From: a bacterium
Lineage (GTDB): Bacteria > Patescibacteriota > UBA1384 > CAILIB01
Reading direction: 5' to 3'
Assembly (NCBI GenBank): GCA_037131105.1
Contig: JBAXRQ010000001.1
Coordinates: 560,589-624,588, forward strand
Length of the DNA: 64,000 nt
Shown: positions 13,354 to 57,880 of the stretch, piece by piece
Layout of the letters: every line of letters begins with the position of its first letter
Position numbering within the stretch: the stretch's first letter is position 1
The notes under the pieces: model-generated
What the model was told of the DNA's origin: nothing
The model's input: only the letters and a program-made list of their open reading frames with translations
The model's database searches: none
Position numbers and translations under genes: made by a program

Positions 13354-13373
13354 GCGCCCAGGAGGTGATTCCT

Positions 13374-13862
13374 GTGTATTTGTACAGCAACTTGGACATT
13401 AATACTTTGCCATTCGCAAGACTGAGTGCAGAGGCGGCAGTCTATGGGGGAAACCTATTCGATACCGCCTGCCATCGCCTAGCATCAATGACTGTTAGCC
13501 TCGAGAACTTCGCGTATACGCCACTGAATTCAACGTCGATATCTGAGCTCCGTTCATATATGCGATGCATACTTTCTGAGTGCTTTATTGTACTTATCTT
13601 AATGGAAGTCCCCGGGCTACATGTACTCGAGCTACTCAGAAACCATGGACTAACTACAGACCAGTGTACCGAAGCCGAACAAGTCATCAAGACGTTTTGG
13701 AGCGTCGTCACATCTGTTGATACTACTCTTGTTCATGAAATTCCCAAGATTATTGAGCAGGGGATAGCACGTGAACTCATAGCTGGACTACATATCATAA
13801 ATGAGTGTAGAGCGTATGGGGAAGACGACTCCAAAGAGCGGCAAGAGGACTCGCATCCTTAG
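13374..13862 (+). CDS. Hypothetical protein in an AT-rich segment (start set at the GTG 8 nt after GGAGG)
   Basis: Only sizeable ORF in the 13.3-14.15 kb AT-rich stretch; good SD; composition differs from neighbours. Confidence 0.3.
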   Translation: MYLYSNLDINTLPFARLSAEAAVYGGNLFDTACHRLASMTVSLENFAYTPLNSTSISELRSYMRCILSECFIVLILMEVPGLHVLELLRNHGLTTDQCTEAEQVIKTFWSVVTSVDTTLVHEIPKIIEQGIARELIAGLHIINECRAYGEDDSKERQEDSHP

Positions 13863-14144: not shown

Positions 14145-17072
14145 CTATTCCTCCCGTGAGTCAGCCGGATCCGGCCCCCACATAGACATCCCCTCGTTCG
14201 CAGTTTGTTCGGGAAGGGCGAGAGGGTCAGGGGACTCAGCTGCGGCTTTTTGGGCAAGCTCCTTGGCCAGGCGTTTTTGCTCAAGCTTCTCCAAAACCTC
14301 TTTTTCAGGCTCGCCTAAGAACCACTTCAGTCCTCCTTTTTGCGACACCTCCTTGTATACCCACTCATCCAAGACCTTCAAGGGCTTTTCTTTGCGTGGC
14401 GGCTTGGGAACTCCCCCACCCTCCTGCTCCATGGGAACTACGAACGGCTCAGCTACTTCAAGCTGAATAATCTCGTTCGGTTTTTGTTCGTATACTACGG
14501 GAGCCGGTATCGGCTCGGTAACCATAGGTAATGGCACAGGCGTCTCTAGGACGGCTACTGGAGCAGGCGCAAGTGTAGCCACTGGTACAGGCTGAGGAAC
14601 AGGTAGAGGCTGCGGAGCAGGCGCTACCGGCTGCACTGGAGGACTCATCGGAGTCCGGATCGCTAATGACTCCCCGCTCTTCAAGATCTCCTGTGCCACG
14701 TTCTTAGCCTCTTCCACCTCACGCTTCTTCTTGTATCCTGCCGTCTCGTCAATAACCAGCTCCACTTCCTCACGAGGACGAGCGTAACGTTCACGAGAAT
14801 ACTGCATGACCAAATCACGGTTCGACTCCCCTATCTCCTTAGGCATCATGGTCTGGGCCGAGAAGGCAGGAGTGGCGATGCCATCCACCAGCAGCTTCAC
14901 ATAGACATGCCCTCTCTGCAGGTTCACCAGGTCGTTGGCATCAAAGACGGGAGCAAACTCTTTGACCAGCACGTCAGCGTCAGGAGCACCTATCCGAAAG
15001 CTTACCATAGTACCAACATTACCAATGACAGCGTCACGCACAGCCTCTGACATCTGGGCGATGTACTGGTGAGCGATGGTTAGTCCCAGGCCGTACTTAC
15101 GGGCTTCAGAAAGAATGGTAGCAAATGACTCGGTGGCAAAGTTCTGGAACTCATCCACGTACAGGAAGCAGTCAGGCCGCTCAGCCGCAGTTACATTTGC
15201 CCGGCTCATAGCCGCAAGCTGCACCTTGGTGATCATCATGGCACCGAGCAGGGCCATGTTGTCTTCACCTATCTTACCCTTTGACAGGTTTACCACCAGG
15301 ATCTTCTGTTCATCCATGATCTGACGTATATCGATGGACGAGGTAGGCTGCCCAACGATATTTCGCATGGTTGAGGTGGACAGGAACTGGCCGACCTTGT
15401 TCAGGATGGATCCAGGAGCTTCCGCCCGCTGTTGTGGCGACATACTCAGCCACTCATTACTCCAGAAGTCCTTAATAACTACATCCTTGATCTGGGCCAC
15501 TATGGACTCCCGGAAGGCATTGTCAGTGAGCATGCGGGGAATACCCAGCATAGTGGGGTTATCTGAGTCCAAGAGAGCGAGTACTGTATTTCTGAGAATG
15601 TATTCAAGGCGAGGACCCCAGGAATCAGAGTAGAGCTTCTTAAAGATGCCGATGAAGCCCGACGCCACCATCCCCTTGTACTCATCCGCTACCTTCTCAA
15701 GAGGGTTGAAGGAGATCGGGAAGTCACGGTCAGAGGGATCAAAGACCACCACGTCCTTTACCCGGTGAGGCGGCACGCTGTCGATGATCTTGTCGGCCAG
15801 TTCTCCGTGCGGATCCACTACCACAACTCCCCTGCCCTCCATCACATCATCGATGATCATATTCTCAAGCAGGGTGGATTTACCCACACCAGACTTACCA
15901 ATGACGTAGATATGGCGCTTTCGGTCGTCTAGCTTGATACCGAACTCTCGTGAGCTGTTACGGAAGTCGGTCTTACCAAGAACGGTAAGTTCCTTAGGCT
16001 CCACCTCATCCTTGAACGGTAGGTTGAACGGAGCTTCGCCCTTCTTAGAGCCGGCCCAGGAGATAGCCGAGGTCTCTACCGCCTTGGTTGGGAAATGGTA
16101 CAGAGAAGCCAGCTCCTCAATGTTCAGGACGCCGCCCTTCTCCTCAAACTGACGGGTGATGTACTTCGTCCAGGAAGCATGGTCATCGACCAGAGTCGAA
16201 ACCCCCCTGAAGCCGTTGAGGTTGGTGGTGTTGTACTGCTTCAGGGCTGCCAGCATAGCCTGGGAGCGTGACTTGGCGGTCTGGGCCTCGTTGGCGATTA
16301 CAACCAGCCTAAATAAGCTTTCAAAACCTAACTTGGTGATCTTGGTCTCAATCCCCTTCAAAGCGGCCTCTTCAGGCGCAGAAAGCTTCGGGGGCTCCTT
16401 AGGACCGCTTCCGGCCGCGTCCCCTACCCCGGATCCCGGCACCACCATCTCCTGCAGTATGCGGGCACCGAAACGGACCACCTTGGCAGCCGCACCTCCC
16501 CCTCCTCCCATGTCTCCGCTTCGTATGGCCTTTACGTGGGCTACTCCGCGATTCTGCCATTCGTCCCCTACCGGCCGCACTACGATTTGCAGCCAGACCT
16601 GTTCACCCTCATTTAGACCAGCCATTACGGCGGTAATACTTGCCAACGGGTCCACCCCTTCGGAAGCCGTTACTGTCTTGATAGGATACACATCCTCCTT
16701 GGTAAGCTCAATCTTGGTAGTACCCACGTGCTTGCCCTCAAGCTCTACCTGCTTGGTATAGTCAGTCACCTGATGGATCTGCAGGTCGGGATACTGGGCA
16801 TAGAGCTGTCCTTCGATGAAGTCCCTCAAATGTAAAGGCGTGAATACATAAAAGATGATCGAGTCCTTCACCGCCACTATCTCAAAGCTTACGTGCTCCT
16901 GGACAATGGGATCCTCTCGGTAGATGCCGTGCAGCGCTGAGAAGAACTGCTCAGCACTGGCGGCAGTCTTCTCGTTTTCCTTGGCCACTTGGATCGCCAG
17001 CACCACAAAGGTCTGGGACTCCAACCACTCTGCTCGGCGTTTCAGATCATTCGGCTTGGACCATAGGGCCAT
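14145..17072 (-). CDS. FtsK/HerA/VirD4-superfamily ATPase A (975 aa): novel ~390-aa N-terminal domain, Walker A GKSGVGKST, VVVDPHGE, Walker B YVDEFQNF, Pro-rich C-terminal tail
   Basis: Motif order matches type IV coupling-protein/HerA ATPases; paralogous to 17655-20270. Confidence 0.7.
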   Translation of the reverse strand: MALWSKPNDLKRRAEWLESQTFVVLAIQVAKENEKTAASAEQFFSALHGIYREDPIVQEHVSFEIVAVKDSIIFYVFTPLHLRDFIEGQLYAQYPDLQIHQVTDYTKQVELEGKHVGTTKIELTKEDVYPIKTVTASEGVDPLASITAVMAGLNEGEQVWLQIVVRPVGDEWQNRGVAHVKAIRSGDMGGGGGAAAKVVRFGARILQEMVVPGSGVGDAAGSGPKEPPKLSAPEEAALKGIETKITKLGFESLFRLVVIANEAQTAKSRSQAMLAALKQYNTTNLNGFRGVSTLVDDHASWTKYITRQFEEKGGVLNIEELASLYHFPTKAVETSAISWAGSKKGEAPFNLPFKDEVEPKELTVLGKTDFRNSSREFGIKLDDRKRHIYVIGKSGVGKSTLLENMIIDDVMEGRGVVVVDPHGELADKIIDSVPPHRVKDVVVFDPSDRDFPISFNPLEKVADEYKGMVASGFIGIFKKLYSDSWGPRLEYILRNTVLALLDSDNPTMLGIPRMLTDNAFRESIVAQIKDVVIKDFWSNEWLSMSPQQRAEAPGSILNKVGQFLSTSTMRNIVGQPTSSIDIRQIMDEQKILVVNLSKGKIGEDNMALLGAMMITKVQLAAMSRANVTAAERPDCFLYVDEFQNFATESFATILSEARKYGLGLTIAHQYIAQMSEAVRDAVIGNVGTMVSFRIGAPDADVLVKEFAPVFDANDLVNLQRGHVYVKLLVDGIATPAFSAQTMMPKEIGESNRDLVMQYSRERYARPREEVELVIDETAGYKKKREVEEAKNVAQEILKSGESLAIRTPMSPPVQPVAPAPQPLPVPQPVPVATLAPAPVAVLETPVPLPMVTEPIPAPVVYEQKPNEIIQLEVAEPFVVPMEQEGGGVPKPPRKEKPLKVLDEWVYKEVSQKGGLKWFLGEPEKEVLEKLEQKRLAKELAQKAAAESPDPLALPEQTANEGMSMWGPDPADSREE

Positions 17073-17085
17073 GGTTTGGGTTCGA

Positions 17086-17613
17086 TTAAAGCATATTGTC
17101 GATCACCGCCCAACGGGAGGGATGATCGGCGGGAATAAGTAGCATAACCTTGTCTCCCAAATGAAGATTAAAGAGTGACATGTAATAAGTCACTGATGCG
17201 GTCAGGATGCTATAGGTGTTGCCGTCCTCAGCATCCACCACATAGTGGTTACCCTCGGCTCGCAGTACACCTGGAATAGTCGAACGCTCGATGGGGCCAA
17301 GCTGCTTGTAGAAGAACTTGCCATCCGGAGTGATATAGAGCTTAAGCGGATCGCCTTCGACTAGCTTGCTTTTGGAGGCGTAGTTTGAGGAAACCTGGTA
17401 TCCCTTGCCGTTATAGTCAACCATCCTCTCGCCGTCAAAGATACCCTCGATCCCGTCGTCAGTACCAGACTGCTCCTGCAGCGCATAGGTAGGCTGGGCA
17501 GCATAACCAGCCGCTCCTACCCCTAATAGCTGCCGCAGATCACGTATATCCTGCTCGATCCGCTCTAACAGTCGCGCCGCCCGCTCAGCATTTCCATCGG
17601 TATTTGTTTCCAT
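17086..17613 (-). CDS. Hypothetical protein (175 aa) between the two ATPase genes
   Basis: Tightly packed within the operon (13-nt and 41-nt gaps); AAAGG SD. Confidence 0.5.
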   Translation of the reverse strand: METNTDGNAERAARLLERIEQDIRDLRQLLGVGAAGYAAQPTYALQEQSGTDDGIEGIFDGERMVDYNGKGYQVSSNYASKSKLVEGDPLKLYITPDGKFFYKQLGPIERSTIPGVLRAEGNHYVVDAEDGNTYSILTASVTYYMSLFNLHLGDKVMLLIPADHPSRWAVIDNML

Positions 17614-17654
17614 ACCTTTATTTAGTTTTTGATCTTAGGATCACTATATTCTTT

Positions 17655-20270
17655 TCAGACCTGGGGAGCAAGCTGAGGGGCAGGAGCTGGGGCCGGTTCA
17701 GGAGTGGCGGCGGGTACCGGTGCGAGTGGCGTTGAAGCCGTTGGAGCCACAGGAGCGACGGGTGCTGAAAGCCCCTTTGAGCGTAGGCGGATCTCGGACT
17801 CCACCAGCTCGCGGTCACGGCCGTACTTGAGGCGGGACAGCTGCTTGATCGCCTCCCCTACCTGGACGTTCTCGTTAGGGTCCGGCGGATAAGCAGCGGC
17901 ATTGAACGGCTTGGACGGACTTCCGTCGATAAGCATCTTGATGTAGTAGTTGTACTTTTCGGTATTGACCATGTCCTCTATCTCCAGTGGATCAAACTCC
18001 TTCTTAAAGAACTCAGCATCCGAGGCACCGATACGCCAGGTAAGCATAGTACCGACGTTACCGATGACGGCATTTCTCGTATCTTCATCAAGCTGTTCGA
18101 CAAACTGGTTGGTGATATTAAGCGACAGCTGGTACTTACGAGCTTCGGAGAGAATGGTGGCAAAAGTCTTGGACGTGAAGTTCTGGAACTCATCCACATA
18201 GAGATAAAATGGTACTCGTTCTGCCTCGGACTGGTTCTGACGTGAGAATGCGGCGATCTGGATCTTACCTGAGATGATCATACCGAGCAGCTGGGCGTTG
18301 ATATCTCCAAGCAGACCCTTCGGCAAGGTCACCAGGAGGATCTTCTTGCTGTCCATGGCCTCCCGAAAGTTGAAGGCGCTGTTCTGCTGGCCGATGATCG
18401 GCCGCATGATGTCATTGGTGGTGAACTGGGTGAGCTTGGAGGTGATGTACGGCACGATATTAGCAAGAGCCGCCTCTCCCCCAGCCTTTTCAGCCTCGTT
18501 CACCCAGAAGTCGATGACCACCTGGTTGCGGGTCTTGGAGAGTTTCAGCTTGCGGAACTCGGCGTCGGCCAGTACCTTTGGGATCTCCATAAGGGTGCTT
18601 CCCGAGTCAGGGTCGTCCATAACCAGCATCATGGCATTTCGCATGTACTGCTCAAACATAGGTCCTCCGGTGGCCTTCAGGTCATACAGCTTGTCGAAGA
18701 TGGAGATCATCTCGTTGATGACCATGGTCTTCTGCTCTGGATAGCGGGGGTCGAACTCAAGTAGGTTGAAGGCCATGGGGCGGGCGGTATCGGAAGGGTC
18801 AAACAGGATGACGTCCTCGGCCCGCTCCTTGGGAATGTGCTTGAGTATCCACTCGACGGCGTCACCGTTAGGATCCATGTAGCAGACCCCGTGCCCAGCC
18901 CGGATGTCCTGCAGTATCATGTTCTGGAACATAACCGTCTTACCTACACCAGTCTTTCCTATCATGTAGAAGTGGCGAGACCGGTCAGGATAGTTCATAT
19001 AGACCGGGATCTCAGTGCCACGGAAGGCGCTGTAGCCCAGCAATAGACCCGACTTCGGGATGTTGTTAGGAGGTGAAAGCCGGCGGGCACCCAGCCAGTG
19101 GATGTTTGGCGTGTCCAGTACCCGGTTTGGGAAATGGAAGATACTGGCCAGCTCCTCTGTGTTCAAGATAAAGCTAGGCTGGTCCTTGGAGAATAGACGC
19201 AGGATGTAGTCATTACGCAGATGCTGGCTACCGACTGCCGCGGTCTTAAACCCGTTCGACTCAGGCGCCTGATACTGAGAGAAAGCTGAGAGCATGGTCT
19301 GGACGTGGTTCTTAGCCTCAATCTCGGTAGCCGCCCAGGCCACGCAGCGGATCTGTACTTTGAAGCCTACCTTGCTGCCCTTCTCCACCATCAGCTTGGC
19401 TTGCTGCTCCTGCATGGCGGTAAGCCTGACATTAGCCTGGGTGGTGTTACCCGCCTCGTTATGAGTAGGTGCATCAGTCTTCTGGCTGGCCACTGCGGAC
19501 TGACCAACTTCCTTGGCAATATTTCCTACCTTCTGCATATTCGTGGTATGGAAGGATTTGCCCTGCTGCACGTTATGGAGCGCCTCCTCTATCTTATGCT
19601 GCCAGGACTGGTCGGTGGGCTGCACCAGGATCTGAATAGCGCCTCTCCCCTGCCCCATCTTGGATAGTGAGTTGGTCAAGCCATTCAGCGGATCATTCTC
19701 CAGGTTCTTATACGTTCTAATAGGAAATATTTGTTGCTTCATCAGCTGGATACCACCAGAGGCTGTAGCACCACCCTCCTTGATAAAGACGTCGTAATCC
19801 GTAGCCTCCTCGATCTGGGCAGCCGGGTATTGGCCATGGATCTGCCGCTCCACCTGATCCACCGTGTCAGAGGGACAGATAACATAAAAGAAAATCTCAC
19901 CATCATGGGCGGCTAGCTCAAAGGAAAAAGTCGGCTGGCCCTTCAGAAACGTATCAAACCAACTCGAGTCATAGAAATGATGCAGCGATGTGAATACCGC
20001 TTCCATGACGCCCATAATCTCCTTGGGATCACGCCGGTCGTCAGGATTGGCGAGCTGTTTAGGCATTGTCACCCGCAGAGCCCGTGTCTTCAAGGCGCGG
20101 TCTTGGTGCTGCTTGGTACGACGCATATAAATGTAGCGTGCCGCCACAGCCAAGCCGATAAGTAGAACAGCCAGTAGAAAGTCAGTCACTAAAAGTGCCG
20201 CCGTGTTGGTAGTACTGCTACCGCCGTCGGTGTAACTGGTGTCGTAGGTGTAGTCGGTGGTGTCTGCCAT
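17655..20270 (-). CDS. FtsK/HerA/VirD4-superfamily ATPase B (871 aa): N-terminal transmembrane helix, same novel domain, Walker A GKTGVGKT, DPNGD, Walker B YVDEFQNF, Pro/Ala-rich tail
   Basis: Clear paralog of ATPase A (shared blocks EELAS.FHFP, FATILSEARKY, AVIGNVGTM). Confidence 0.7.
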   Translation of the reverse strand: MADTTDYTYDTSYTDGGSSTTNTAALLVTDFLLAVLLIGLAVAARYIYMRRTKQHQDRALKTRALRVTMPKQLANPDDRRDPKEIMGVMEAVFTSLHHFYDSSWFDTFLKGQPTFSFELAAHDGEIFFYVICPSDTVDQVERQIHGQYPAAQIEEATDYDVFIKEGGATASGGIQLMKQQIFPIRTYKNLENDPLNGLTNSLSKMGQGRGAIQILVQPTDQSWQHKIEEALHNVQQGKSFHTTNMQKVGNIAKEVGQSAVASQKTDAPTHNEAGNTTQANVRLTAMQEQQAKLMVEKGSKVGFKVQIRCVAWAATEIEAKNHVQTMLSAFSQYQAPESNGFKTAAVGSQHLRNDYILRLFSKDQPSFILNTEELASIFHFPNRVLDTPNIHWLGARRLSPPNNIPKSGLLLGYSAFRGTEIPVYMNYPDRSRHFYMIGKTGVGKTVMFQNMILQDIRAGHGVCYMDPNGDAVEWILKHIPKERAEDVILFDPSDTARPMAFNLLEFDPRYPEQKTMVINEMISIFDKLYDLKATGGPMFEQYMRNAMMLVMDDPDSGSTLMEIPKVLADAEFRKLKLSKTRNQVVIDFWVNEAEKAGGEAALANIVPYITSKLTQFTTNDIMRPIIGQQNSAFNFREAMDSKKILLVTLPKGLLGDINAQLLGMIISGKIQIAAFSRQNQSEAERVPFYLYVDEFQNFTSKTFATILSEARKYQLSLNITNQFVEQLDEDTRNAVIGNVGTMLTWRIGASDAEFFKKEFDPLEIEDMVNTEKYNYYIKMLIDGSPSKPFNAAAYPPDPNENVQVGEAIKQLSRLKYGRDRELVESEIRLRSKGLSAPVAPVAPTASTPLAPVPAATPEPAPAPAPQLAPQV

Positions 20271-20287: not shown

Positions 20288-20665
20288 TTAGGAAGTGGGA
20301 GTATCAGGTCCTGGATTCGCATTCTGGGACGCAAGCAACCGCAGGTTCGCCATGAACTGCGCCCTCTGCGAAAGGGGCATCTTCTCAAAATCCTCCGGAA
20401 GTTCGTGCAGGACAGAAACGACTCCAGGAGAACCTGCCCCGGTGTCACTGCCAGCTACGGCCTCAGGACCAGAATCAGGTGCGAGGGTTACCAGCGCAGT
20501 AGCACCCTCTACCGTACTATTAACCCCATCGACAGGACCCTCAACCTGCGCCGGAATCTGTTCTCCACCTGAAAGCACGGCGGCTTCGGGATTCTGCTGG
20601 TCAATCTGTTGAGTCTGGGCATCACGTAGCGACTCGGGAGTATTTGAACCTGGAAGCTCAGGCAT
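20288..20665 (-). CDS. Hypothetical small acidic protein (125 aa), probably disordered
   Basis: ORF fills the gap between the giant membrane protein and ATPase B; no SD. Confidence 0.35.
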   Translation of the reverse strand: MPELPGSNTPESLRDAQTQQIDQQNPEAAVLSGGEQIPAQVEGPVDGVNSTVEGATALVTLAPDSGPEAVAGSDTGAGSPGVVSVLHELPEDFEKMPLSQRAQFMANLRLLASQNANPGPDTPTS

Positions 20666-20721
20666 GGGATATCCGTTACTAGTTCATATTAAGCATACCA
20701 GCCCGGAGGTAAAGTCGAAAG

Positions 20722-23700
20722 CTATGAAGACCCACCCGGGAGCAGTACATCCTGAAGAGCCTCGTTATTGAGAATATTGGCCATGGCGGCTCCGATCAGG
20801 AGAATGCGGTTTTCCAGTGGGCTTCCGTCTGGGAGTTTTTTGTATCTTTCTCTTGTCGGGGCACTGAGTTGCCTTAGGCGAGTCAGCGCCTCCTTACGGC
20901 CGTCTCCTTCGGTCAGGTTAAGAAGCTCCATGACGCTTTCCCTATCCGCAAAGAAGTCCTCTAGGGCGGCATCATCCGCTGGCATCCCGTCCCCACCATT
21001 AATAAGCTCTTCTAGGTTCTTCTTTATACGATCAGAAAATGCCGGATATTTCTTTTCAGCTTCTGGAGGTGCGGCGCTTCTCAGCCTCAGCTGCAGCCTC
21101 CGCAAGCTATCCATAATAGAAGATGGTCGACTTTCTTCAGTAGAAGGAGTCACAGTCACGGCTGGCGGTTCTTCAGCTGGCGCTGCTTCGACTGTACCCG
21201 GATCAGCAACAGGCGGAGCCTCCAAATCACCCTCGTCCGCTACTGCTTCGATAGGGGCGCCTACGGGCTCCGCAGCAGGAGCCTCAGTCCCTGCACCAGC
21301 ATCCGGATCACCGGGAGCAGCTGGCGGCTCAGTAGTAACGGTCTCTGTACGACCCGCTACGGGATCACTATTATTGGCCTCCTTCTGCATGAACTGACCC
21401 TGTCTCCTTATGGTAAGGTCAAAGGAACGGACCGGCATGCAGCCTTCGGTACCATATGACCGGTCGTTGGCTTCGTTAAAGAGATATCTGCTCCAGTTCT
21501 TCACGAGTGGTACGAAATGCAGGGAAAGGGCCGGACGCCATGGACCCCGGGTATCAGTCGTAGCCGGATCCATAAGGGCCTTATAGGACTGCCTCAGAGC
21601 CTCTTGCCTCTCTAGGCTCGACAGCACCTCGTCATCAACCGCCATGAAGAGCTTCACATTTCCATTGAAGCGATCGTTGAAATCCTCAGGTGCGTTCTCA
21701 CCGAAACGCTTGGCACTACCCTGGTAGTCCCAGATCGCTTCCATTTTACCCCTCACCATGGCAGGTGACTGCTCAGGAGTAAAGGCAAGAAGAAATCTCT
21801 GCTCGTCTTTCGGCCAATCACTCAGGGTTTCAGCTGCTAACCTGAACGCGTCCCTGTGCAGCGGATTCCTAAGCTCGTCCCTGAAGTTCTTGGCCCCCGG
21901 ACCCGCGGCAGACCTGAGGCCATTCTTGTATGCCTCCCAGGAACCAAGCTCGGAGATACTGCCCACCCCATCATCCCCGGCACCGCCATCCTCGATGATC
22001 AGCTCAGTTTTTGTTGAGCGTAGCTTATTTTGAATGTAATACTCTTCAAGCTCGCTGACCTCGTATTTTATGCCGCCGTACCCCACGCTCTCCTCATTCC
22101 CCGCAAAGGGACCTTCGATGTTCAATGGCCGAAGGATTGCGGTGTCGGGGTCAGTCTCATAGTCAGCGTTATTGGGTCCGGACACCAAGTACACGTAATC
22201 AAACATAACAAGGTTTCCCTGTGCCGGCGTATCCATCTGGAAGACCGTTCCAGGCTTCTTCATGAGCTCCTGAAATTCGACCCGACGAGTTTCGCGCTCT
22301 GCAGGTGACAGTCCTGGCTCTGGCCGAACAGGAGCCTCTCTGCCTGCCGGAGGTCGTTCGGTAGGAGGTACTGGTGGTGCAGGTGGCACCGGAGCCTGAG
22401 GTCCCTCAGGCCCTCCGGGACGCGGAGGAGTGGGCGGTACTGGTGGAGCAGGTGGCACAGAAGCCGGCGGTGTCGCCGTTGCTGCCTCGGGCGTAGCAGG
22501 AGGAGCAGGCACAACAGACCCTTCTGGCTGCACTTGGCTGGCATTTCCTACCCCGCCTAGTGAAGTCAGCTCCGACTTGCCGCGAGCAGCGTTCAGGCGG
22601 GTCCTATTGGCCTCACCCATGGTGGCAATACCCTCGGACATGGCAGCGCCCGCCCCGAAGAAAGCCGTAAGCGGAACCGTCTGGGCAAGACTGTCCTTCA
22701 GAAAGGCACCGAAGATCTGCAGGCCACCGACCTCTGAATTATGGAAAAGCTGCAGGCCACGGCCAGTAGTTGCGTCATACATCGCCCCTCCCAGCCGTCT
22801 AGCGGCGTCCACCGCGTCTGTAGTTGCACCATTTCCGGGATATATGGCATGCAAGGTGTTCGGCGACACGTTTATCATGTCCTTCCTCTCAAGGACGAAC
22901 CTGGCCACTTTGTCGTGGGCCCCCTGTATCATCTTGGTCAGATGTCCCCTGGTTGAGTCGTGAGCCACGCTCATGCCGTCCAGCCGCACACCGTCGGCAC
23001 CGTACAGTGAGTTCTGCAGCCCATGCCAGTGATTGATGATGTTGTAGAGGCCACCGGTCAGGCTTCCAGCTGCGCCGCCGATCATTCCCGCCTTATTGAT
23101 CTGCTTGTCAGCCTCTTTCCTGGCCTTCATGAACTCACCGAACTTGGCCAGCTTCTCGTCGGCAGGTGGCTCACCAATATTCTTCAGACGGCTGTCGGTC
23201 GAGTCACGCATGCTGCGGGCAACAAAGCGCAGTAGGTCGGCCTTCTGCTCCTGAGTAGCCTCAGGTGCCGCTTCAGGATTCTCAGTAGTATGAATATAGC
23301 GCTGGGCATACTCAGTTGCCTTGCCGACATTCTCAGTCAGCTCCTGGAAGGCCGACCCTCCCAGAGTAGTGCCGTCTTCTTGCTCCTGGTAGAGCTTCTT
23401 CTCCTTGAAGTGGCGCATGATGCTGCGCCCGGCCATGGCACCGGCAAAGCTCAAGGCCGCCAGAGGTACAGCGGTTCCCATGGAAATGGTAGCCAGTCCT
23501 AACGCTGAAAGCCCCATGCCCACGCCGAGGCCGCCGGCAGTGGTCTTGGCGGTCCGCACTCCATCCTTTATGACCCGCTTCACATAACTTGGCTGTTTGA
23601 GGTTGACGTTTATTTCGGACTGAGGATCAATACCTCCCTGCGAGGAGAAGCTTTCGATATCCACACCGAACTGGTCGCAGGCCTCCTGCAGATTTTTGAA

Positions 23701-24240
23701 GCCTAGGCGGTGCACATACATCTCGCCGGCGATAGAGTCCCAGCCGTACTGCACCAGATCCCTAGCAATGAACAGCAGATCCTCCTCGTCAAGCTCCTCT
23801 CGGCGCTTCAGCTTTTCCTTGAAGCGAGTAAGAATAAGTCGACGGACAAGCTGGCGATGGGCGTCGGCGTCCAGCATTTCAGGCTCAGCCGGTACCTCGA
23901 TCGCCGGGGCAGGAGCTTCTTCAGCCGGAGGAGTTTCAACCAGAGGGGCAATGGCAGGCTCGGCCACAGGGTCAGCGGCAGGGACCTCAGGTTCAGGATC
24001 GGAAGCAGGGACTGGTTCCGGAGCGATAGGCTGCTCTTCACCGTTCAAGTAGAGCTCCTTCAATCGGGCCAGGTCATAGCGCTTATACTCACGCTCACGC
24101 TGGGCCAGCAGCCGTTTCTGCTGCTTGGGCTTATGGACGTTCTCCTCCATAAACTCATTCTTGTACTCGTTAACCCTGTCGGCGAGAGTGCCGGCATTGG
24201 TACGTGCGTTCTGCCATCCTTCCCCCCATGCGACAGCCAT
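20722..24240 (-). CDS. Giant membrane protein (1172 aa) with Gly/Ala-rich transmembrane hairpins, Pro-rich linkers and a C-terminal globular region; possible VirB6/TrbL-like channel or scaffold
   Basis: Hydrophobic G/A-rich segments (GGLGVGMGLSALGLATISMGTAVPLAALSFAGAMAG; GMIGGAAGSLTGGLY; VPLTAFFGAGAAMSEG); start 2 nt from the stop of the upstream ORF. Confidence 0.6.
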   Translation of the reverse strand: MAVAWGEGWQNARTNAGTLADRVNEYKNEFMEENVHKPKQQKRLLAQREREYKRYDLARLKELYLNGEEQPIAPEPVPASDPEPEVPAADPVAEPAIAPLVETPPAEEAPAPAIEVPAEPEMLDADAHRQLVRRLILTRFKEKLKRREELDEEDLLFIARDLVQYGWDSIAGEMYVHRLGFKNLQEACDQFGVDIESFSSQGGIDPQSEINVNLKQPSYVKRVIKDGVRTAKTTAGGLGVGMGLSALGLATISMGTAVPLAALSFAGAMAGRSIMRHFKEKKLYQEQEDGTTLGGSAFQELTENVGKATEYAQRYIHTTENPEAAPEATQEQKADLLRFVARSMRDSTDSRLKNIGEPPADEKLAKFGEFMKARKEADKQINKAGMIGGAAGSLTGGLYNIINHWHGLQNSLYGADGVRLDGMSVAHDSTRGHLTKMIQGAHDKVARFVLERKDMINVSPNTLHAIYPGNGATTDAVDAARRLGGAMYDATTGRGLQLFHNSEVGGLQIFGAFLKDSLAQTVPLTAFFGAGAAMSEGIATMGEANRTRLNAARGKSELTSLGGVGNASQVQPEGSVVPAPPATPEAATATPPASVPPAPPVPPTPPRPGGPEGPQAPVPPAPPVPPTERPPAGREAPVRPEPGLSPAERETRRVEFQELMKKPGTVFQMDTPAQGNLVMFDYVYLVSGPNNADYETDPDTAILRPLNIEGPFAGNEESVGYGGIKYEVSELEEYYIQNKLRSTKTELIIEDGGAGDDGVGSISELGSWEAYKNGLRSAAGPGAKNFRDELRNPLHRDAFRLAAETLSDWPKDEQRFLLAFTPEQSPAMVRGKMEAIWDYQGSAKRFGENAPEDFNDRFNGNVKLFMAVDDEVLSSLERQEALRQSYKALMDPATTDTRGPWRPALSLHFVPLVKNWSRYLFNEANDRSYGTEGCMPVRSFDLTIRRQGQFMQKEANNSDPVAGRTETVTTEPPAAPGDPDAGAGTEAPAAEPVGAPIEAVADEGDLEAPPVADPGTVEAAPAEEPPAVTVTPSTEESRPSSIMDSLRRLQLRLRSAAPPEAEKKYPAFSDRIKKNLEELINGGDGMPADDAALEDFFADRESVMELLNLTEGDGRKEALTRLRQLSAPTRERYKKLPDGSPLENRILLIGAAMANILNNEALQDVLLPGGSS

Positions 24241-24242
24241 AC

Positions 24243-24590
24243 TCAGGCCTCCTGTGGGAGGGCAGTTACGGCGATATCCGGGTCAATAGCGGCCTTGAAG
24301 GTAGCGGCCAGCTCAAATCGGTAGCGCATAGCCTCCTCAGTGATAAGGGCGGCCAGGTCTATCCCCTGCGCCTCGATGTAAGGAATCATGTCGTCGGCGG
24401 AAAGCTCGGAGAAATGATGGCGCTGGTCTTCGGGAAGCATCTCGTAGACGGTGAGATATACCCGTCCCTGGACAGTCTGATTCATGGTCTTGAGCAGCTC
24501 TTCCTTCTCATCCTCAGGCAAGCCCTGCAGACCAAGGAGGGTGAAGAAATCCTCTTCGAGAATATCCTGGAGAGTCAGAGAAAACGACAT
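24243..24590 (-). CDS. Hypothetical small acidic protein (116 aa; start set at MSFSL)
   Basis: ORF coupled to the downstream giant gene; no recognisable motif. Confidence 0.45.
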   Translation of the reverse strand: MSFSLTLQDILEEDFFTLLGLQGLPEDEKEELLKTMNQTVQGRVYLTVYEMLPEDQRHHFSELSADDMIPYIEAQGIDLAALITEEAMRYRFELAATFKAAIDPDIAVTALPQEA

Positions 24591-24710: not shown

Positions 24711-25766
24711 CTATGCTGTCGCTGGAGCTGCTGTGCCCGGAGGCGGCGTAGGAGCCGGCGTCGGGGCGGGAGTTGTGGTGGCCGGTGTGGCCGGGGTGCC
24801 AGTAGCTGGCGTCGCAGTCGCACCGGTTGTAGCCGGTGGTGCCGTGACGGTCGCTGTGGCCGGCTTCTTGAAAAGCCAGGCCAACGCAACCAGTATCAGG
24901 ATGCCGAGCCCTACCAGTCCCCAGTTTATCTGGATGACGCTGTTGACGCCGCTCCGGATGTCGCTGCCCTGGGCCTTGATCTCGGTTGCCTGCTTCTGGA
25001 TGTCGGTCGCCTGATCCCCGATAGTGGCCAGTGAGGTCAGGAAGTCTTTGTCGTCAACCTCCTGCTTGCTGGCTACTCCGTTGATCGTGGTGACAACCGT
25101 TGCCAGTGTGGCAGTGTTGGCGCTCGTTGAGGCCTGAACCGCCTTCACGCCAGTGGCAATCGCGTCGATCTTCTTACCCAGGCCGTCGAACTTGGCGTCG
25201 GTCCGCTTTTCGGAAGCGGCGACCAGGCCTTTTACGGCGACTAGTGTCACGCCAGACTTGCTCACCCTTCCACCAGTTGCCTTGCGGCTTGCGGCGTGGT
25301 GACGGACAGATCCACCGCTGCGGTGGCGGCGAACACCCCCACCGTGATGGCGGTGATGACGGACCGGAGCAGCAGGGGCAGCCGCGGGTGCGGCGGCCGA
25401 ATGCGTGTCCGGCACGACCTCGGGGGCCGGTTTGGTCTCCGGGTCAGGAGCGGGATCTGGCTCGGTGGCAATGCCACTGTCGCCGTCTTCCACGTCATTG
25501 CCTTCGTCCTCTCCAACCCCGTATTCGGGAGCAGGGGCGGCTTCGGGCAATCCTGCCTGCGGGGCAGGCGGGGCCAGTGCCAGCCGTTCTCCACTCTGGC
25601 CTTCAGGGGCCTTCGGGGCGGAAACGGTTGTTTCAAAGCCCGGGTTCGGCGCCGGGGCGCCTATGCTGGCCTGACTTCTTCCAGTCGAGCTGGTGGACGT
25701 CATATGGACCGCCACACCGAGTACCATGCCGATCGCCAATGCGACGATCACAATTCGATTTTTCAT
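24711..25766 (-). CDS. Membrane protein (351 aa): signal/transmembrane N-terminus, acidic Pro/Ala region, His/Arg-rich patch, coiled segment, C-terminal transmembrane helix and Pro/Thr-rich tail
   Basis: Start MKNRIVIVALAIGMVLG is preceded by AGGAGG; it is the first gene of the operon, behind a consensus promoter. Confidence 0.55.
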   Translation of the reverse strand: MKNRIVIVALAIGMVLGVAVHMTSTSSTGRSQASIGAPAPNPGFETTVSAPKAPEGQSGERLALAPPAPQAGLPEAAPAPEYGVGEDEGNDVEDGDSGIATEPDPAPDPETKPAPEVVPDTHSAAAPAAAPAAPVRHHRHHGGGVRRHRSGGSVRHHAASRKATGGRVSKSGVTLVAVKGLVAASEKRTDAKFDGLGKKIDAIATGVKAVQASTSANTATLATVVTTINGVASKQEVDDKDFLTSLATIGDQATDIQKQATEIKAQGSDIRSGVNSVIQINWGLVGLGILILVALAWLFKKPATATVTAPPATTGATATPATGTPATPATTTPAPTPAPTPPPGTAAPATA

Positions 25767-32786: not shown

Positions 32787-34673
32787 TTACCGGATGTCCA
32801 GGTTCTCCAGGCTCTTCTTCAGGGCCTTCTTCAGCTTCAGGTAGCGAGCAAGTCCTGCACCTAGTCCAGAAGTGGTTCCTGCTAGTAGCAGGCCAGCTTC
32901 AGGGCCGGTCTTAGGCAACTGAGGCGGAACCGTGACAACTACGGGAGACGGACTTGGGGTCGGGCTATGCGTAGGAGTCGGGGTAGCGGTAGGAACTGGG
33001 GTCGGAGTAGGAGTCGGACTTGGGGTAGGCGTAGGTGTTGGCGTAGGCTTCGGGGTAGCTGTTGGCGTGGGGGTAGGGGTAGCCGTAGGCTTGGGAGTAG
33101 GAGTCGGGGTGGGCTTTGGCGTAGGTGTAGGCGTGGCCGTAGGGGTAGGCTTCGGAGTCGGGGTTGGGGTCGGCTTCGGGGTAGGAGTCGGAGTAGCCGT
33201 AGGTGTTGGGGCAGGCGTAGGAGTAGGAATGACACAGGCAGGCAGGATAGCCGTAGCAGTGTCGCTCTTCTCTCCGGTTCCGTTGGCCTTGATGAAGGCG
33301 GTGTTCACCGCAGTGGTCTGAGCCACGAGACAACGAACCTGAACCTTCAGGGTAATCGTCTTACCATGACCGGGGTCAAAGGTGGTCAGGATAATACCTC
33401 CCTTGAAGAAGGCGTCCTGTACCGGCTGAGACTGAACCGCGTTGTCGATGGTCAGACTGTTAGGCACATAGGTGGCACCGGTAGGCAGCACGTCACGCAG
33501 GGTAGGATTCACAGCGGTAGTGTTGCCAGTGTTACCGACCAAGATACGGTAGGTCAGGGTCTGGTTAGGGTTAATCAGTCCGATAGAGTCTACGTAGGCA
33601 CCGGTAGCGGGGTTCTGAACGTCCTTTACGACGGTCAGACCGCGGGTGCAGGAAATCAAGGTGGTAGCATCGTCAGAGGCCTTTACAGCGCCCTGGTATA
33701 CGATCTGAGCCTTGTCGACAACGGTTACGTCGGCACCACAGTTCGAAGGCGCAATGGCCTCAAACTGGATACGCTGGTATCCGCCGGTATGAGGCTCCAG
33801 GCTGGAGAACACATAGCCGCCGTTCACGATGGCATTACCCGAGATAGGGGTACCGTTCGTGTTGTTCTGGTTGGTCAAGAGAGCGTTGCCAGCATAGGTG
33901 AACCCAGCAGGCAGCACGTTCTTCAACGAGACATTGTTGGCAGTAGTATTACCGGTGTTCAGGATGGTCATACGATAGGCCACCTTGTCACCAGGAGCGA
34001 TGATAGCAGTAGCGGCATCGTACCAGATATCATAGCCGAGACTCATGTCACGGACCTCATTCTTCACGCTGAATGAGGTTACCGGAGTACCGTACCGGGT
34101 AACGGTATAGGATACCGGATTGGTGACAGCGCTTACCCCGTCAAACGAAGAGGTAGCGGTATTGGTATAGGTAGTCTGGCCAACCGAGAACTGGTCGTCA
34201 GAAGCAAGGCGAGCCTTGAACTGAAGATACAGGGCAGCGTTTGGCTGAGGAGCCATGTCAACGAAGGCCCAGCCAAGGTCATGACCGTTGTTCTTAATGC
34301 TCATGTAGCTATCCGAAAGCGGATAGTCATGGTCCTTGTTATCGCTGCCCTTTACCCGTACGAACGAGCTGTTAGGGGTATAGGTCAGACGAGAGTCAAG
34401 GTGCTCTACGATCTTCGGGTGGGCGCCGTTAGCGTCACCGGTGTTCTCAAGGAGTACGCGGAACGCCAGCGAGTCACCAGGAGTAGCCTGGGCACTGGAA
34501 GCATACTCGGACTGCCCGCCGGACAGCTGTACGGCAAGCCTGGTGTTGATCTGGGGACCAGAGGTCGCAATGACCGACTGCATACCCATGAAGCCAAGGG
34601 CCAGGGCGGAAGCAGCCACCACAAAGCGGGTGCCGAATCGTCCCATGGATGTAAGGAGTGAACTTTGTGTCAT
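32787..34673 (-). CDS. Cell-wall-anchored surface protein: signal peptide, DUF11-type repeat domains, Pro/Thr-rich stalk, LPKTG sortase motif plus hydrophobic segment plus basic tail
   Basis: C-terminal [31 protein letters not shown] is a canonical LPXTG sorting signal; ~100-aa (PTPT/PKPT)n linker. Confidence 0.7.
32932..33235 (-). repeat. Degenerate tandem DNA repeats (GGNGTNGGN-type units) encoding the Pro/Thr-rich stalk of the LPXTG protein
   Basis: Visible periodic gtaggngtnggngt units on the plus strand; explains the Gly/Val shadow ORFs on the opposite strand. Confidence 0.6.
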
Positions 34674-53262: not shown

Positions 53263-54477
53263 TTACTTGATGAAGCCGTCGTCGTCAAAGGCTCCAGAGA
53301 AATCAACTACGCTCTTGCGAGAGCCAGGATTGTGAGGAATACTGAGCAGCAGCTTGCGCTGGACGCCGAAAGCAAACCCTATAGCCTCAACTTTGGTAGA
53401 GCCCGTCTCGATGATCATGTCCGCATGCCGGGCGTCAAGGTTATTGCCCGTTCCGAAATTAGGATCCAACGGAGCCTTAAGGATGAGTACCTGATCTCCT
53501 ACAAGATAGGTCGGCGACTCTGCCACGCTGGCCATAGACTTGGCAATTGCTAGCGCCTTTGCGTTTGACGGTATCTGGACCCGCTGGTGCGAGTCGTCGA
53601 ACTCCAGCTTGTACCAGGTGCCATTAAGAAGTGAACTACTCCACATCAGCTTCAGGGAGGCCTTGCCATCAGAGCGATTCCCAATTGCTGACTCCATCTC
53701 AACCAACATGACCTTGTTAACAGTGTCGGGATAGACGTTATAGTACGGTATCTGAAGTATCAGGAAAGGATTGGAAGCGCTGGGTGCCGCCGGATCGGAT
53801 TGGATGATACCGGAGTTATAAGGCTTCGCATCCCAGACGGCATTATCACTATTGTAAGGCACCTCGCTATCGCTCAAGGTAAACTTCGGGTACGTGTTCA
53901 CACTGTGACCAGGAGTGTCATCCATATGAAGCCGCACAAAGCTGCGCACGGTCATATCATACCCCTGCGAAGAGCATCCCGTAGTAGGTATGGCCACAGG
54001 ATAGCTAGTGTTGCTTTGTGACGAGTTATAACCTGCCATATTATACACATACTTCGACTCGCCGGGCTTGCAGTCTTTGGTCCCGCTATATAGCCGGCGC
54101 AGGGTATACGGAAACGTCGTGCTATCCTGACTTATCGCGGTCCTGGTAGCAGGCACAGGATGCGGAATCGAAGGATCATACGGAGGACCGTACCTTATCC
54201 AAGGATTATGGGTATCATCAGGGGTGCCTATGCCATAAACGGGACCATACAGAGGGTTGGTAGCCAACAGGTCCGTGTTATTTAGAACTAGCGTAGCCTC
54301 CTGAATAGCCGACTGAGCCATATCGGTGGCCACCTTGGCGCTATCAAACTGAGCAACACTTCGAACCGTACCAGCCGAACGCCGAATAGCAAGCAGGGTA
54401 ACTGTTGAAACCACCATCATTACCAATAGGACGGTAAGCAGGGCGGAACCGGGTCTTCGGAAGGATGATATGGTCAT
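53263..54477 (-). CDS. Type IV pilus minor component (PilX-like; N-terminal hydrophobic segment without canonical G-F prepilin site)
   Basis: GSALLTVLLVMMVVSTV N-terminus; last gene of a 4-gene overlapping pseudopilin operon. Confidence 0.5.
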   Translation of the reverse strand: MTISSFRRPGSALLTVLLVMMVVSTVTLLAIRRSAGTVRSVAQFDSAKVATDMAQSAIQEATLVLNNTDLLATNPLYGPVYGIGTPDDTHNPWIRYGPPYDPSIPHPVPATRTAISQDSTTFPYTLRRLYSGTKDCKPGESKYVYNMAGYNSSQSNTSYPVAIPTTGCSSQGYDMTVRSFVRLHMDDTPGHSVNTYPKFTLSDSEVPYNSDNAVWDAKPYNSGIIQSDPAAPSASNPFLILQIPYYNVYPDTVNKVMLVEMESAIGNRSDGKASLKLMWSSSLLNGTWYKLEFDDSHQRVQIPSNAKALAIAKSMASVAESPTYLVGDQVLILKAPLDPNFGTGNNLDARHADMIIETGSTKVEAIGFAFGVQRKLLLSIPHNPGSRKSVVDFSGAFDDDGFIK

Positions 54478-56329: not shown

Positions 56330-57072
56330 TTGTTGAGAGTGAAGATTATCGGTGCACCTAGCGGACCTATAGTGATATCGCCCGAGGTAGGATCACTGGT
56401 ACCGGCAGTAGTTGCGTCAACAAGGGTTATTTTCATTTCAAAGCCCGCGCCCTGGTATTTGCTGCTGCAGTCACTTCCATGGAAAGCATTGGTGAAGTTC
56501 GTCCTGTTAGTATTATAAGGAGGGAAGGGAGGCTGACAGATGATGCGGGGCAGGCCGTGCTCGTTCACCCCGAACAGTATCCGTATAGGCTGCCCGGGAT
56601 CGATGCTATTAGGGGATACGGCGACAGTAGCCCCACCCAGCCGGACTGAGGAAGAGGCGGTCACGCTTCGCAAAGTGGCGACATAGACAGGTCCTGGCAA
56701 AGAGCCACTGCCAGTCTGGCCTCCGGCCAGGTTAGGAGGACGACCGATATAGTCAAGGGACTTGTAAGCGTCAACCACGCAGTAAACCGGTCCGACGTTA
56801 AGCGGAACAGGACTGGTGGCAGTATCAGGAGCAGTGGTAAGAGTGACCGAAACAAAGCCCATTTTCATGCCGTCAGTATCGGTACCTGGAGCTGCAGCCG
56901 TTCGCTGGGCATACTGTATGCAGTCAACGATATCCTGGGCTGAGCCAGCGAACTCCTGCTGTCGAATAAAGCCGTTATACCGTGGAACGGCCACCATAAG
57001 GACCGCAACGCTGATGGCAGCGGCAATGATCAGCTCAATAAGGGTGAAACCGGTAGGGCGTCGAAGGATCAT
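56326..57072 (-). CDS. Type IV minor pilin / pseudopilin (GFTLIELI); start set at MILRRPTGF
   Basis: Class III signal peptide motif; overlaps pilD stop. Confidence 0.6.
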   Translation of the reverse strand: MILRRPTGFTLIELIIAAAISVAVLMVAVPRYNGFIRQQEFAGSAQDIVDCIQYAQRTAAAPGTDTDGMKMGFVSVTLTTAPDTATSPVPLNVGPVYCVVDAYKSLDYIGRPPNLAGGQTGSGSLPGPVYVATLRSVTASSSVRLGGATVAVSPNSIDPGQPIRILFGVNEHGLPRIICQPPFPPYNTNRTNFTNAFHGSDCSSKYQGAGFEMKITLVDATTAGTSDPTSGDITIGPLGAPIIFTLNK

Positions 57073-57851: not shown

Positions 57852-57874
57852 ACCTCGTAAGTATACGCTATACT
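57845..57874 (+). promoter_or_regulatory. Promoter TTGTCA-18-TATACT placing the TSS on the ATG at 57881 (leaderless ABC transporter mRNA)
   Basis: -10 ends 7 nt before the ATG; no SD. Confidence 0.45.
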
Positions 57875-57880
57875 CGACTC

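Follow-up and report, generated by a model that had tools for sequence, protein, structure and literature searches.

A tandem pair of DUF8128 ATPases in Patescibacteria with a predicted VirB4-like N-terminal domain and a coupling-protein-like motor

Two large ATPase genes, here termed A and B, lie in tandem within the 64-kb stretch of patescibacterial DNA that we analysed (the window; Table 1), and the locus raises the question of what kind of machine they encode. Although the genomes of Patescibacteria measure about 1 Mb, nearly every one of them devotes about 5.5 kb to an ATPase pair of this type. NCBI annotates A as a ‘type IV secretory system conjugative DNA transfer family protein’ and B (WCO52_03155) as a ‘hypothetical protein’. 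Both open reading frames are exactly as originally predicted, and alignment bears out that they are paralogues sharing their whole architecture: in a BLASTP alignment of 765 residues, 36% are identical and 55% positive (E 5e-148), which is far beyond chance, and the aligned portion takes in both the N-terminal region and the ATPase. Among the sequence blocks that had been proposed as common to the pair, EELAS(L/I)(Y/F)HFP, DP(H/N)G(E/D), FATILSEARKY, YVDEFQNF and AVIGNVGTM occur in both proteins, whereas DxIxFYVxxP and QxHxQYP are only approximately shared. The Walker A, Walker B and other motor motifs are intact in A and in B, which suggests that both are probably active. Orthologues of the two proteins form two clean groups, with identities of 56% and 52% within the groups and 35% between them. 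On these comparisons we assign A and B to the FtsK/HerA superfamily as tandem, translocation-type ATPases, and regard them as anciently diverged paralogues of a Patescibacteria-wide family. A recent duplication or an assembly artefact is ruled out by the level of identity between A and B together with their separate orthologue clusters. Orthologues of B (approximately 835 aa) are 46-76% identical to it, and B is the better conserved of the pair when orthologues from the same contig are compared (76 versus 67%, 71 versus 61% and 70 versus 66% for B and A, respectively).

Table 1. Features of the A/B locus (window coordinates)
Feature	Position	Strand	Description
Gene A	14145..17072	-	A-type DUF8128 ATPase; 975 aa ORF
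A conserved C-tail motif VYKEVSQKGGLKWFLGE	14310..14360	-	Residues 905-921; from alignment of 62 A-type tails
A Pro-rich linker	14466..14708	-	Residues 789-869
A motor domain	14703..15995	-	Residues 360-790
A Walker B	15138-15167	-	Residues 636-645
A motor all-helical insertion	15312-15686	-	Residues 463-587
A Walker A	15876-15899	-	GKSGVGKS, residues 392-399
A DUF8128 domain	16038..17015	-	Approximately residues 20-345; predicted VirB4 N-terminal-domain-like fold
p175	17086..17613	-	175 aa; between B and A; N-terminal helix, then beta-rich C-terminal part
Gene B	17655..20270	-	B-type DUF8128 ATPase; 871 aa ORF
B Pro/Ala-rich C-terminal tail	17658..17801	-	Residues 824-871; lineage-specific
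B RecA-like motor domain	17766..19055	-	Approximately residues 406-835
B Walker B	18177-18209	-	Residues 688-698
B Walker A	18936-18959	-	GKTGVGKT, residues 438-445
B DUF8128 domain	19092..20087	-	Approximately residues 62-393; aligns with the A N-terminal domain, carries PF26449
B transmembrane helix	20127..20195	-	Residues 26-48; single, N-terminal; hydropathy scan
p125	20288-20665	-	Upstream of B; acidic, Pro-rich, largely low-complexity
p1172	20722-24240	-	Upstream; acidic, Pro-rich, largely low-complexity
DUF5663 small protein	24243..24590	-	115 aa; weak match to PF18908; weakly conserved upstream element

The family has been encountered before under another name. A survey of 3,035 Patescibacteria genomes recorded 5,713 homologues in 2,918 of them, or about two per genome, counted as ‘T4CP homologues to VirD4’, with only 148 located near virB4 (PMC12102498). 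Published counts place VirB4 itself in 2,417 genomes (approximately 80% of those surveyed, versus 96% for the family). A role for A and B in a type IV secretion system (T4SS) is therefore not required by the data, as they are found in more genomes than VirB4 and rarely near it.

Functional data are available for Southlakia epibionticum ML1, the one tractable species, where SEML1_0142 and SEML1_0293 (1019 and 921 aa; their P-loop domain begins at about residue 361-381) are the apparent counterparts of the pair, predicted to be of the B and A type, respectively, an orthology drawn from annotation, domain boundaries and synteny. Both carry TraM-recognition and TrwB_AAD_bind annotations and belong to core, Patescibacteria-enriched families, and SEML1_0293 is preceded by a Sigma70_r4/HARE-HTH gene (SEML1_0294), as are A-type genes elsewhere. 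Unlike the adjacent A and B, the ML1 genes are unlinked (Wang et al. 2023), and Tn-seq classed SEML1_0142 as essential and SEML1_0293 as non-essential (PMC10633639 Table S1). This difference in essentiality argues against an obligate A:B complex. Moreover, if SEML1_0293 is an A-type orthologue, then epibiotic growth needs the T4SS but not A, which speaks against A being an obligate coupling protein of the T4SS.

The N-terminal region of approximately 380 residues was originally predicted to be a novel domain, but it is already catalogued: precomputed Pfam hits assign the N-terminal domain of A, B and all homologues listed to PF26449 (DUF8128). No model in our local copy of Pfam matched this region even at E <= 10, and searches of PDB sequences with the N-terminal domain, either as a single sequence or as a 116-sequence profile, matched only the P-loop region. 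We found no mention of DUF8128 in the literature searched, and the family is uncharacterised in function. Structural comparison was more informative. An AlphaFold2 model of the domain from A (pLDDT 90.3) gave 14 Foldseek matches in the PDB with E <= 1e-3, and all 14 were TrwK/VirB4 chains; the best match was to VirB4/TrwK rather than to HerA, and a HAS barrel was not indicated. The model therefore places DUF8128 in the fold of the VirB4 N-terminal domain, the very outcome named beforehand as lowering the novelty of the region, and the corresponding domain of B is predicted to share this fold from the model of A. The position of Walker A, at approximately residues 395-440, had been contrasted with that in VirD4/TrwB, but given this fold the right comparator is VirB4. 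In some variants DUF8128 and the motor are encoded by adjacent genes, and the N-terminal domain is therefore a separable module that works with the motor. Taken together, the pair represents a known machine in an unusual form.

The motor points in a different direction from the N-terminal domain, since by sequence it is closest to the type IV coupling proteins (VirD4/TraD/TrwB). In A, Pfam scores are 39 bits for T4SS-DNA_transf (cutoff 20.1), 35.8 for TrwB_AAD_bind (20.5), 24 for TraG-D_C (22) and 31.6 for DUF87; in B, TrwB_AAD_bind and TraG-D_C score 23.6 and 23.4 bits. AAA_10 falls below threshold (15.1 bits, cutoff 27.5) and the Pfam model CagE_TrbE_VirB gave no match even at E <= 10. NCBIfam TraD is also among the best sequence-profile matches, although membership of a defined NCBIfam family is not indicated, as the VirD4-like CD1115 profile (50.7 bits) widely misses its equivalog cutoff of 250, and VirB4-like CD1110 and VirB4_plasma reach 16.8 and 21.7 bits against cutoffs of 325 and 590. 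The AlphaFold2 model of the motor (pLDDT 90.9) adds no further discrimination: on fold comparison, coupling-protein, VirB4 and HerA motors are not separable.

Two other functions can be weighed here. It is scarcely credible that A and B stand in for FtsK as the DNA translocase of chromosome segregation in these reduced genomes: the FtsK_SpoIIIE profile, with a cutoff of 24 bits, reaches 13.9 bits, at the P-loop only, and A and B have no gamma domain. A canonical FtsK with 4TM, alpha, motor and gamma domains (SEML1_0096) is present in ML1 and is essential there, which refutes such a replacement for Saccharimonadia. It is also very unlikely that A and B are anti-phage defence ATPases, HerA-like or resembling mad8 of the MADS system, that reside in a defence island. 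The PADLOC mad8 profile does match A (E 6.9e-21) and B (E 9.4e-15), but the context is wrong: these are near-universal, syntenic, vertically inherited core genes amid housekeeping genes, in the window they have no effector genes as neighbours, be it nuclease, Sir2, methylase or another, Tn-seq marks one of the ML1 paralogues as essential, and the N-terminal domain resembles that of VirB4 and not a HAS barrel. We have therefore rejected a defence role.

With regard to membrane attachment, the hydropathy scan detects one transmembrane helix in B and none in A, in agreement with the suggestion of a membrane-bound and soluble pair, but this is true only locally. Among the orthologues sampled, 52 of 54 of the B type have an N-terminal transmembrane helix and 34 of 62 of the A type retain one, and loss of the helix in A appears from these sequences to be confined to the window's own clade. 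In B, the helix is preceded by an acidic stretch of 25 N-terminal residues and followed by a basic one (RRTKQHQDR), from which, by the positive-inside rule, we infer an N-out, C-in topology. The original prediction went on to combine a novel N-terminal domain on VirD4-type motors with a hetero-hexamer of membrane-bound B and soluble A. This model fits the distribution of helices in the window, the conserved adjacency and co-orientation of the genes and the absence of detectable sequence similarity between the N-terminal domain and solved structures or older Pfam families. We nevertheless consider it improbable as a whole, because the N-terminal domain is DUF8128 with a predicted VirB4-type fold, most A orthologues outside the window's clade are anchored by a transmembrane helix, and in ML1 the two paralogues are not linked and only one is essential. 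An A:B hetero-hexamer in itself is plausible in view of the conserved B-then-A adjacency.

The Pro-rich tails are real in both proteins but do not constitute a shared, conserved feature. Proline content in 40-aa windows reaches 37.5% in the linker of A and 30% in the tail of B; however, a long C-terminal tail is a conserved trait of the A type only, with median tail lengths among orthologues of 255 aa for the A type and 17 aa for the B type, and the Pro/Ala tail of B is therefore lineage-specific. Alignment of the A-type tails revealed instead a conserved motif with the consensus YKE..RGGvKWyLGE. At the DNA level, tandem repeats beneath the Pro-rich tails amount to marginal two-copy matches only. 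Pro-rich segments are also present in several unrelated proteins encoded in the window.

The genes are arranged as an operon on one strand in the order B, p175, A, with gaps of 41 nt between B and p175 and 13 nt between p175 and A. The p175 product has 527 homologues, all annotated ‘hypothetical’, whose locus tags adjoin those of A and B; orthologues in related loci L003, L005 and L010 are approximately 40-45% identical, and a gene for 174 aa, an orthologue by position, lies between the two in L011. A partner of approximately 170 aa usually separates B and A, although a p175-type gene is absent in L012. A Pfam scan and a PDB profile search with p175 gave only sub-threshold matches, to DotY (E 0.08) and to SpoVT/AbrB-type proteins (E 0.014-0.16). 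Further upstream, p125 and p1172 are separated by short intergenic gaps and match no Pfam or NCBIfam model. As conserved components of the system they were rejected, as they lack detectable similarity to the genes occupying the same slots in L003, L005 and L011, and their membership in the ATPase system is uncertain. The small DUF5663 protein is found also in L005 and L011 (BLAST E 4e-6).

The B-then-A order and the flanking housekeeping genes recur across distant Patescibacteria: upstream, TGT is found in the window, L011 and L012, and downstream, SecDF, RluD and RmuC are common to L001, L003/4, L005, L011 and L012. A scan for promoters and terminators between 13300 and 27300 performed no better than shuffled sequence, and no tRNA or Rfam features were found within the window. 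It also contains no genes for VirB3, VirB4, VirB6, VirB8, a relaxase or a pilin array.

This arrangement brings into consideration an autonomous translocase independent of the T4SS, such as a motor that exports or imports DNA or protein, is specific to the envelope biology of Patescibacteria and acts with p175 and, in other lineages, with a Sigma70_r4/HARE-HTH protein. Consistent with this are the wider distribution of the family relative to VirB4 and its almost complete separation from virB4, the conserved core-genome synteny next to secDF, and the presence of a Sigma70_r4 and HARE-HTH gene directly upstream of the A-type genes in L003, L005, L010 and two split variants, as well as in ML1, whose T4SS has no recognisable coupling protein (Wang et al.). 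Against this, the cluster lacks a conserved gene for a dedicated channel protein, the genes upstream, which are hypervariable, encode no transmembrane segments, and incompleteness of metagenome-assembled genomes could account for the genomes that appear to lack VirB4. The HARE-HTH gene is, moreover, absent from the window and could encode an essential transcription factor with no connection to the ATPases. We therefore view an autonomous translocase as possible, though on the doubtful side.

The explanation that we favour, and hold to be reasonably probable, is that A and B are Patescibacteria-wide, membrane-associated and presumably ring-forming NTPases with a VirB4-like architecture and a coupling-protein-like motor. 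In this architecture an N-terminal membrane anchor is followed by the VirB4-like DUF8128 domain and then by a RecA-type motor of the FtsK/HerA superfamily. A and B would assemble on the cytoplasmic side of the membrane. In the inner-membrane complex of R388, the central VirB4 has its N-terminal domain wrapped by VirB3, and VirB8 contributes tails that bind the outer VirB4 (PMC9259494); DUF8128 may likewise mediate dimerisation and contacts with membrane partners. Hydrolysis of ATP would then power or gate the passage of a macromolecular substrate, either DNA or protein, through a channel in the envelope. B may represent the slower-evolving, membrane-anchored core and A the more variable subunit, whose tail motif could recruit a partner or substrate in the manner of coupling-protein C-terminal tails. 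A bolder extension, which we consider unlikely, is that the DUF8128 ATPases form a third, hitherto unrecognised VirB4/VirD4 branch and, by retaining a VirB4-type N-terminal domain on a motor like that of coupling proteins, a living intermediate between the two. In Patescibacteria the paralogues would then have divided between them the ‘central’ and ‘outside’ positions, both filled by one VirB4 in the R388 complex, within an essential, T4SS-independent envelope motor, and the A motif would recruit the substrate.

Surveys list these proteins as ‘VirD4-type T4CP homologues’ that lie away from the T4SS and have possibly been exapted. Once a VirB4-type N-terminal domain is recognised in them, the inner-membrane complex of VirB4 takes over as the structural reference, which suggests a testable model of specialised ‘central’ and ‘outside’ subunits and offers a possible evolutionary link between VirB4 and the coupling proteins. 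p175 and, in other lineages, the Sigma70_r4/HARE-HTH gene are candidates for follow-up in Southlakia.

HerA, FtsK and EccC ATPases are among the closest known systems. A and B differ from HerA in lacking an N-terminal HAS barrel and, in the window, a NurA or effector partner, and from FtsK/SpoIIIE in lacking the 4TM region plus alpha, beta and gamma domains. In type IV coupling proteins a two-helix transmembrane domain leads directly into the motor, and Walker A lies at about residue 130. A and B resemble these proteins (VirD4, TrwB, TraD, TraG, DotL and Cag-beta) in their best profile matches, the DEF-type Walker B, the long C-terminal tail of A and perhaps a helical insertion in the motor. 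In contrast, a VirB4-like domain of 330 aa intervenes, the transmembrane helix is single (B) or absent (A), and there are no linked relaxase or MPF genes. With VirB4/TrwK (PDB 7o42, 8rtb, 8rtd) they share the overall order, in which a large alpha/beta domain at the N-terminus precedes a RecA-like motor, and the placing of Walker A approximately 400-440 residues from the N-terminus. They differ in that sequence identity is approximately 10%, A and B are two diverged paralogues that do not adjoin virB3, virB6 or virB8, and Patescibacteria possess a separate, shorter bona fide VirB4 in the T4SS cluster. The N-terminal transmembrane helix resembles the arrangement in VirB3-VirB4 fusions.

The original prediction of tandem paralogous ATPases in this window was borne out, as both open reading frames, A and B, were found (see table) and the pairwise alignment it had proposed gave 36% identity over 765 residues (BLASTP, E 5e-148), starting at about residue 41 of A and residue 90 of B and ending at the end of the motor. 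The sequence blocks quoted as common to the pair occur in both proteins, both retain the catalytic motifs, and both Pro-rich tails could be located. The pair is real and biologically meaningful. A word-indexed search returned more than 3,800 homologues of A and more than 1,200 of B, and PF26449 (DUF8128) comes first in all homologues listed for either protein. When 62 A-type and 54 B-type sequences were aligned they split cleanly into two groups, with 56% and 52% identity within the groups as against 35% between them, so the duplication is ancient. B orthologues are better conserved than the A orthologues from the same contigs.

The order B-then-A and the flanking synteny recur in Patescibacteria genomes where A is only 50-61% identical to that of the window. 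For example, TGT lies upstream in loci L011 and L012, and SecDF, RluD and RmuC lie downstream in L003/4, L005, L011 and L012. The interval between B and A holds only p175, which encodes a 175-residue protein, in the window and L011, p175 plus a Sigma70_r4/HARE-HTH gene in L003 and L005, and no gene in L012, where B and A overlap by 4 nt. In L010 p175 and the Sigma70_r4/HARE-HTH gene are directly upstream of A, and the contig stops short of any B gene.

Coordinates of the ATPase pair, its neighbours and related loci (nucleotides unless residues are stated)
Feature	Locus	Position	Strand	Description
A	window	14145-17072	minus	ORF, 975 aa
A, motor scored	window	14703-15995
A, Walker A	window	residues 392-399		GKSGVGKS
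A, Walker B	window	from residue 636		FLYVDEF
A, Pro-rich tail	window	residues 789-869
A, tail motif	window	residues 905-921		YKE..RGGvKWyLGE (A-type consensus)
p175	window	17086-17613		ORF, 175 aa, between B and A
B	window	17655-20270	minus	ORF, 871 aa
B, motor scored	window	17766-19055
B, TM helix	window	residues 26-48
B, Walker A	window	residues 438-445		GKTGVGKT
B, Walker B	window	from residue 688		FYLYVDEF
B, Pro-rich tail	window	residues 824-871
Convergent ORF	window	13365-13862	plus	162-165 aa
Slot upstream of B	window	20288-24240		p125, p1172
Slot upstream of B	L011	890-5890
Slot upstream of B	L003	2744-5350
Slot upstream of B	L005	3790-5580
p351	window	24711-25766
628-aa protein	window	32787-34673
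Pilus cluster	window	53263-64000		type IV
Pilin-like and unknown genes	window	53263-56329
Prepilin peptidase	window	57069-57851
Pilin	window	60318-60908
PilC	window	61019-62221
PilT-like	window	62228-63301
PilB-like ATPase	window	63314 onward		cut by window end
Sigma70_r4/HARE-HTH	L003	8780-9808
Sigma70_r4/HARE-HTH	L005	8873-9907
Sigma70_r4/HARE-HTH	L010	590-1612
Sigma70_r4/HARE-HTH	L014	57-1187
Split variant	L013	772-3915		DUF8128 gene, then motor gene
Split variant	L014	1220-3464		second gene cut by contig end
Split variant	P0428 locus			DUF8128 gene, then motor gene

The window is chromosomal. Genes near the pair encode TGT, ribosomal proteins L10 and L1, guanylate kinase, SecD, SecF, RluD, RmuC and a UvrD/AddA-like helicase, with DprA, TopA and a type IV pilus cluster farther off; no VirB4, VirB6, VirB8, relaxase or pilin array was found within the 64 kb. 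The contigs that carry the A and B protein sequences are 391 to 949 kb long. An ORF convergent with A lacks a Pfam match and is an annotated gene in public assemblies. On the minus strand the order is p351, a DUF5663 gene, p1172, p125, B, p175 and A, with gaps of 17 nt before B, 41 nt from B to p175 and 13 nt from p175 to A, so B-p175-A, judged by this spacing, is very probably a single transcription unit.

The p175 family (527 homologues, with locus tags adjoining A and B in several assemblies) has no Pfam family. Its best PDB profile matches, which are non-significant, are to DotY (E 0.08-0.1), one of the subunits that make up the type IV coupling complex of Legionella, and SpoVT/AbrB (E 0.16), and 7 of 42 members give weak matches to the MazE/SpoVT-AbrB Pfam family; either resemblance is a lead only. 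The Sigma70_r4/HARE-HTH gene (about 345-385 aa), missing from the window, directly precedes A-type genes in most other lineages. The slot just ahead of B encodes acidic, Pro-rich and mostly low-complexity products, among which no similarity could be detected between genomes sharing 61-71% identity in A and B. This slot is hypervariable at a conserved position, and may encode surface proteins that evolve fast, or substrates. Long Pro/Ala/Thr-rich segments also occur in p351, which has a hydrophobic helix at each terminus, and in a 628-residue protein, so Pro-rich linkers are not specific to the ATPases and characterise the envelope or unknown proteins of this genome in general.

A membrane-bound B beside a soluble A, as predicted, is what the window encodes, A having no TM helix, but the distinction does not hold beyond this clade. 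An N-terminal TM-like helix is present in 52 of 54 B-type and 34 of 62 A-type sequences, and is missing from all of the approximately 20 nearest A orthologues (at least 56% identity), which start as the window's A does; soluble A is thus a derived, clade-specific state. Acidic residues before the helix of B and basic residues after it suggest an N-out, C-in topology. A-type tails are long (median 255 aa), with variable Pro-rich linkers flanking one short conserved motif; those of B-type proteins are short (median 17 aa).

The N-terminal domain had been considered novel, a view we abandon, as it belongs to the catalogued family DUF8128 and its modelled fold is that of the VirB4 N-terminal domain, the assignment named beforehand as reducing the novelty. 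AlphaFold2 models, built for residues 1-790 of A with a 116-sequence alignment (mean pLDDT 90.9, pTM 0.79) and for residues 1-350 separately (pLDDT 90.3, pTM 0.86), were obtained. Foldseek gave 14 matches to the latter at E <= 1e-3, each of them a TrwK/VirB4 chain of an R388 structure (probability 1.0, TM-score about 0.5). Since this query lacks a P-loop domain and its match lists include no other P-loop ATPase, we infer that the match is to the VirB4 N-terminal domain.

Profiles of the motor favour the coupling proteins. In A the Pfam families T4SS-DNA_transf (39 bits) and TrwB_AAD_bind (35.8 bits) score above threshold, with AAA_10 at 15 bits, and the NCBIfam models VirD4-like CD1115 (50.7 bits), TraD (47.5 bits) and VirB4-like CD1110 (16.8 bits) are all far under their equivalog cutoffs. 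The PADLOC profile mad8 of the MADS defence system beats every coupling-protein profile (E 6.9e-21 for A, 9.4e-15 for B), but the pair is not set in a defence island.

The two modules are also encoded separately. A phmmer search with the N domain of A against 1.84 billion cluster representatives retrieved 1,947 proteins at E <= 1e-3, many of which are 420-550 aa long and contain only TM helices and DUF8128; such short representatives number in the dozens. In all three loci examined such a gene (450-480 aa) is directly followed by a separate gene, which in L013 and the P0428 locus encodes a coupling-protein-like motor of 569-646 aa; these are split versions of the A/B architecture. In the P0428 locus, genes for a VirB4-like protein and a T4SS pilin are located ~9 kb upstream.

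A recent survey (Quinonero-Coronel et al. 2025, PMC12102498) examined 3,035 Patescibacteria genomes and counted 5,713 "T4CP homologues to VirD4" in 2,918 of them, or about two per genome. No more than 148 of the homologues were close to virB4, and VirB4 was present in 2,417 genomes. The authors proposed that the VirD4 homologues may be exapted, and made no mention of A/B pairing, the N domain or p175. Southlakia epibionticum ML1 has an essential T4SS without a recognisable coupling protein, an essential FtsK of the canonical type and a VirB4 that is short, and two genes of the A/B architecture appear in Tables S1 and S2 of the study on it (Wang et al. 2023, PMC10633639). SEML1_0142 (1019 aa, P-loop domain 381-800) is essential (Tn-seq ES/ES/ES) and flagged as core and Patescibacteria-enriched; SEML1_0293 (921 aa, TrwB_AAD_bind 402-719) is non-essential (NE/NE/NE) and directly downstream of SEML1_0294 (PMC10633639), an essential Sigma70_r4/HARE-HTH gene. 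As this order is the A-type synteny of L003, L005, L010 and the split variants, we infer that SEML1_0293 is A-type and SEML1_0142 B-type.

Spread wider than that of VirB4, absence of linkage and unequal essentiality favour at least partial independence from the T4SS; a coupling-protein-like motor and a T4SS lacking its own coupling protein favour a role in it. In R388 each inner-membrane protomer contains two VirB4 copies, the central one having its N-terminal domain wrapped by VirB3, which supplies TM segments, and VirB8 tails contact the outside copy only (PMC9259494). By analogy, DUF8128 may tie the motor to the membrane and partner subunits, and the split gene pairs fit a separable interaction module. 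On the most likely reading, to which we give even chances or a little less, B forms a membrane-anchored, slow-evolving, probably essential core ring, A acts as an accessory or adaptor paralogue that brings in a partner or substrate through its tail motif, and the transfer of macromolecules at the envelope is driven or gated by ATP hydrolysis.

New with respect to the searchable literature, where we found no mention of PF26449/DUF8128, are the structural link between this family and the N-terminal domain of VirB4, the ancient A/B paralogy with its conserved gene order, the p175 partner and the split-gene variants. Taken together, the fold of the N domain and the motor profiles make it highly probable that A and B join a VirB4-type N domain to a coupling-protein-like motor: they resemble VirB4 in the N domain and overall layout, and the coupling proteins in the motor.
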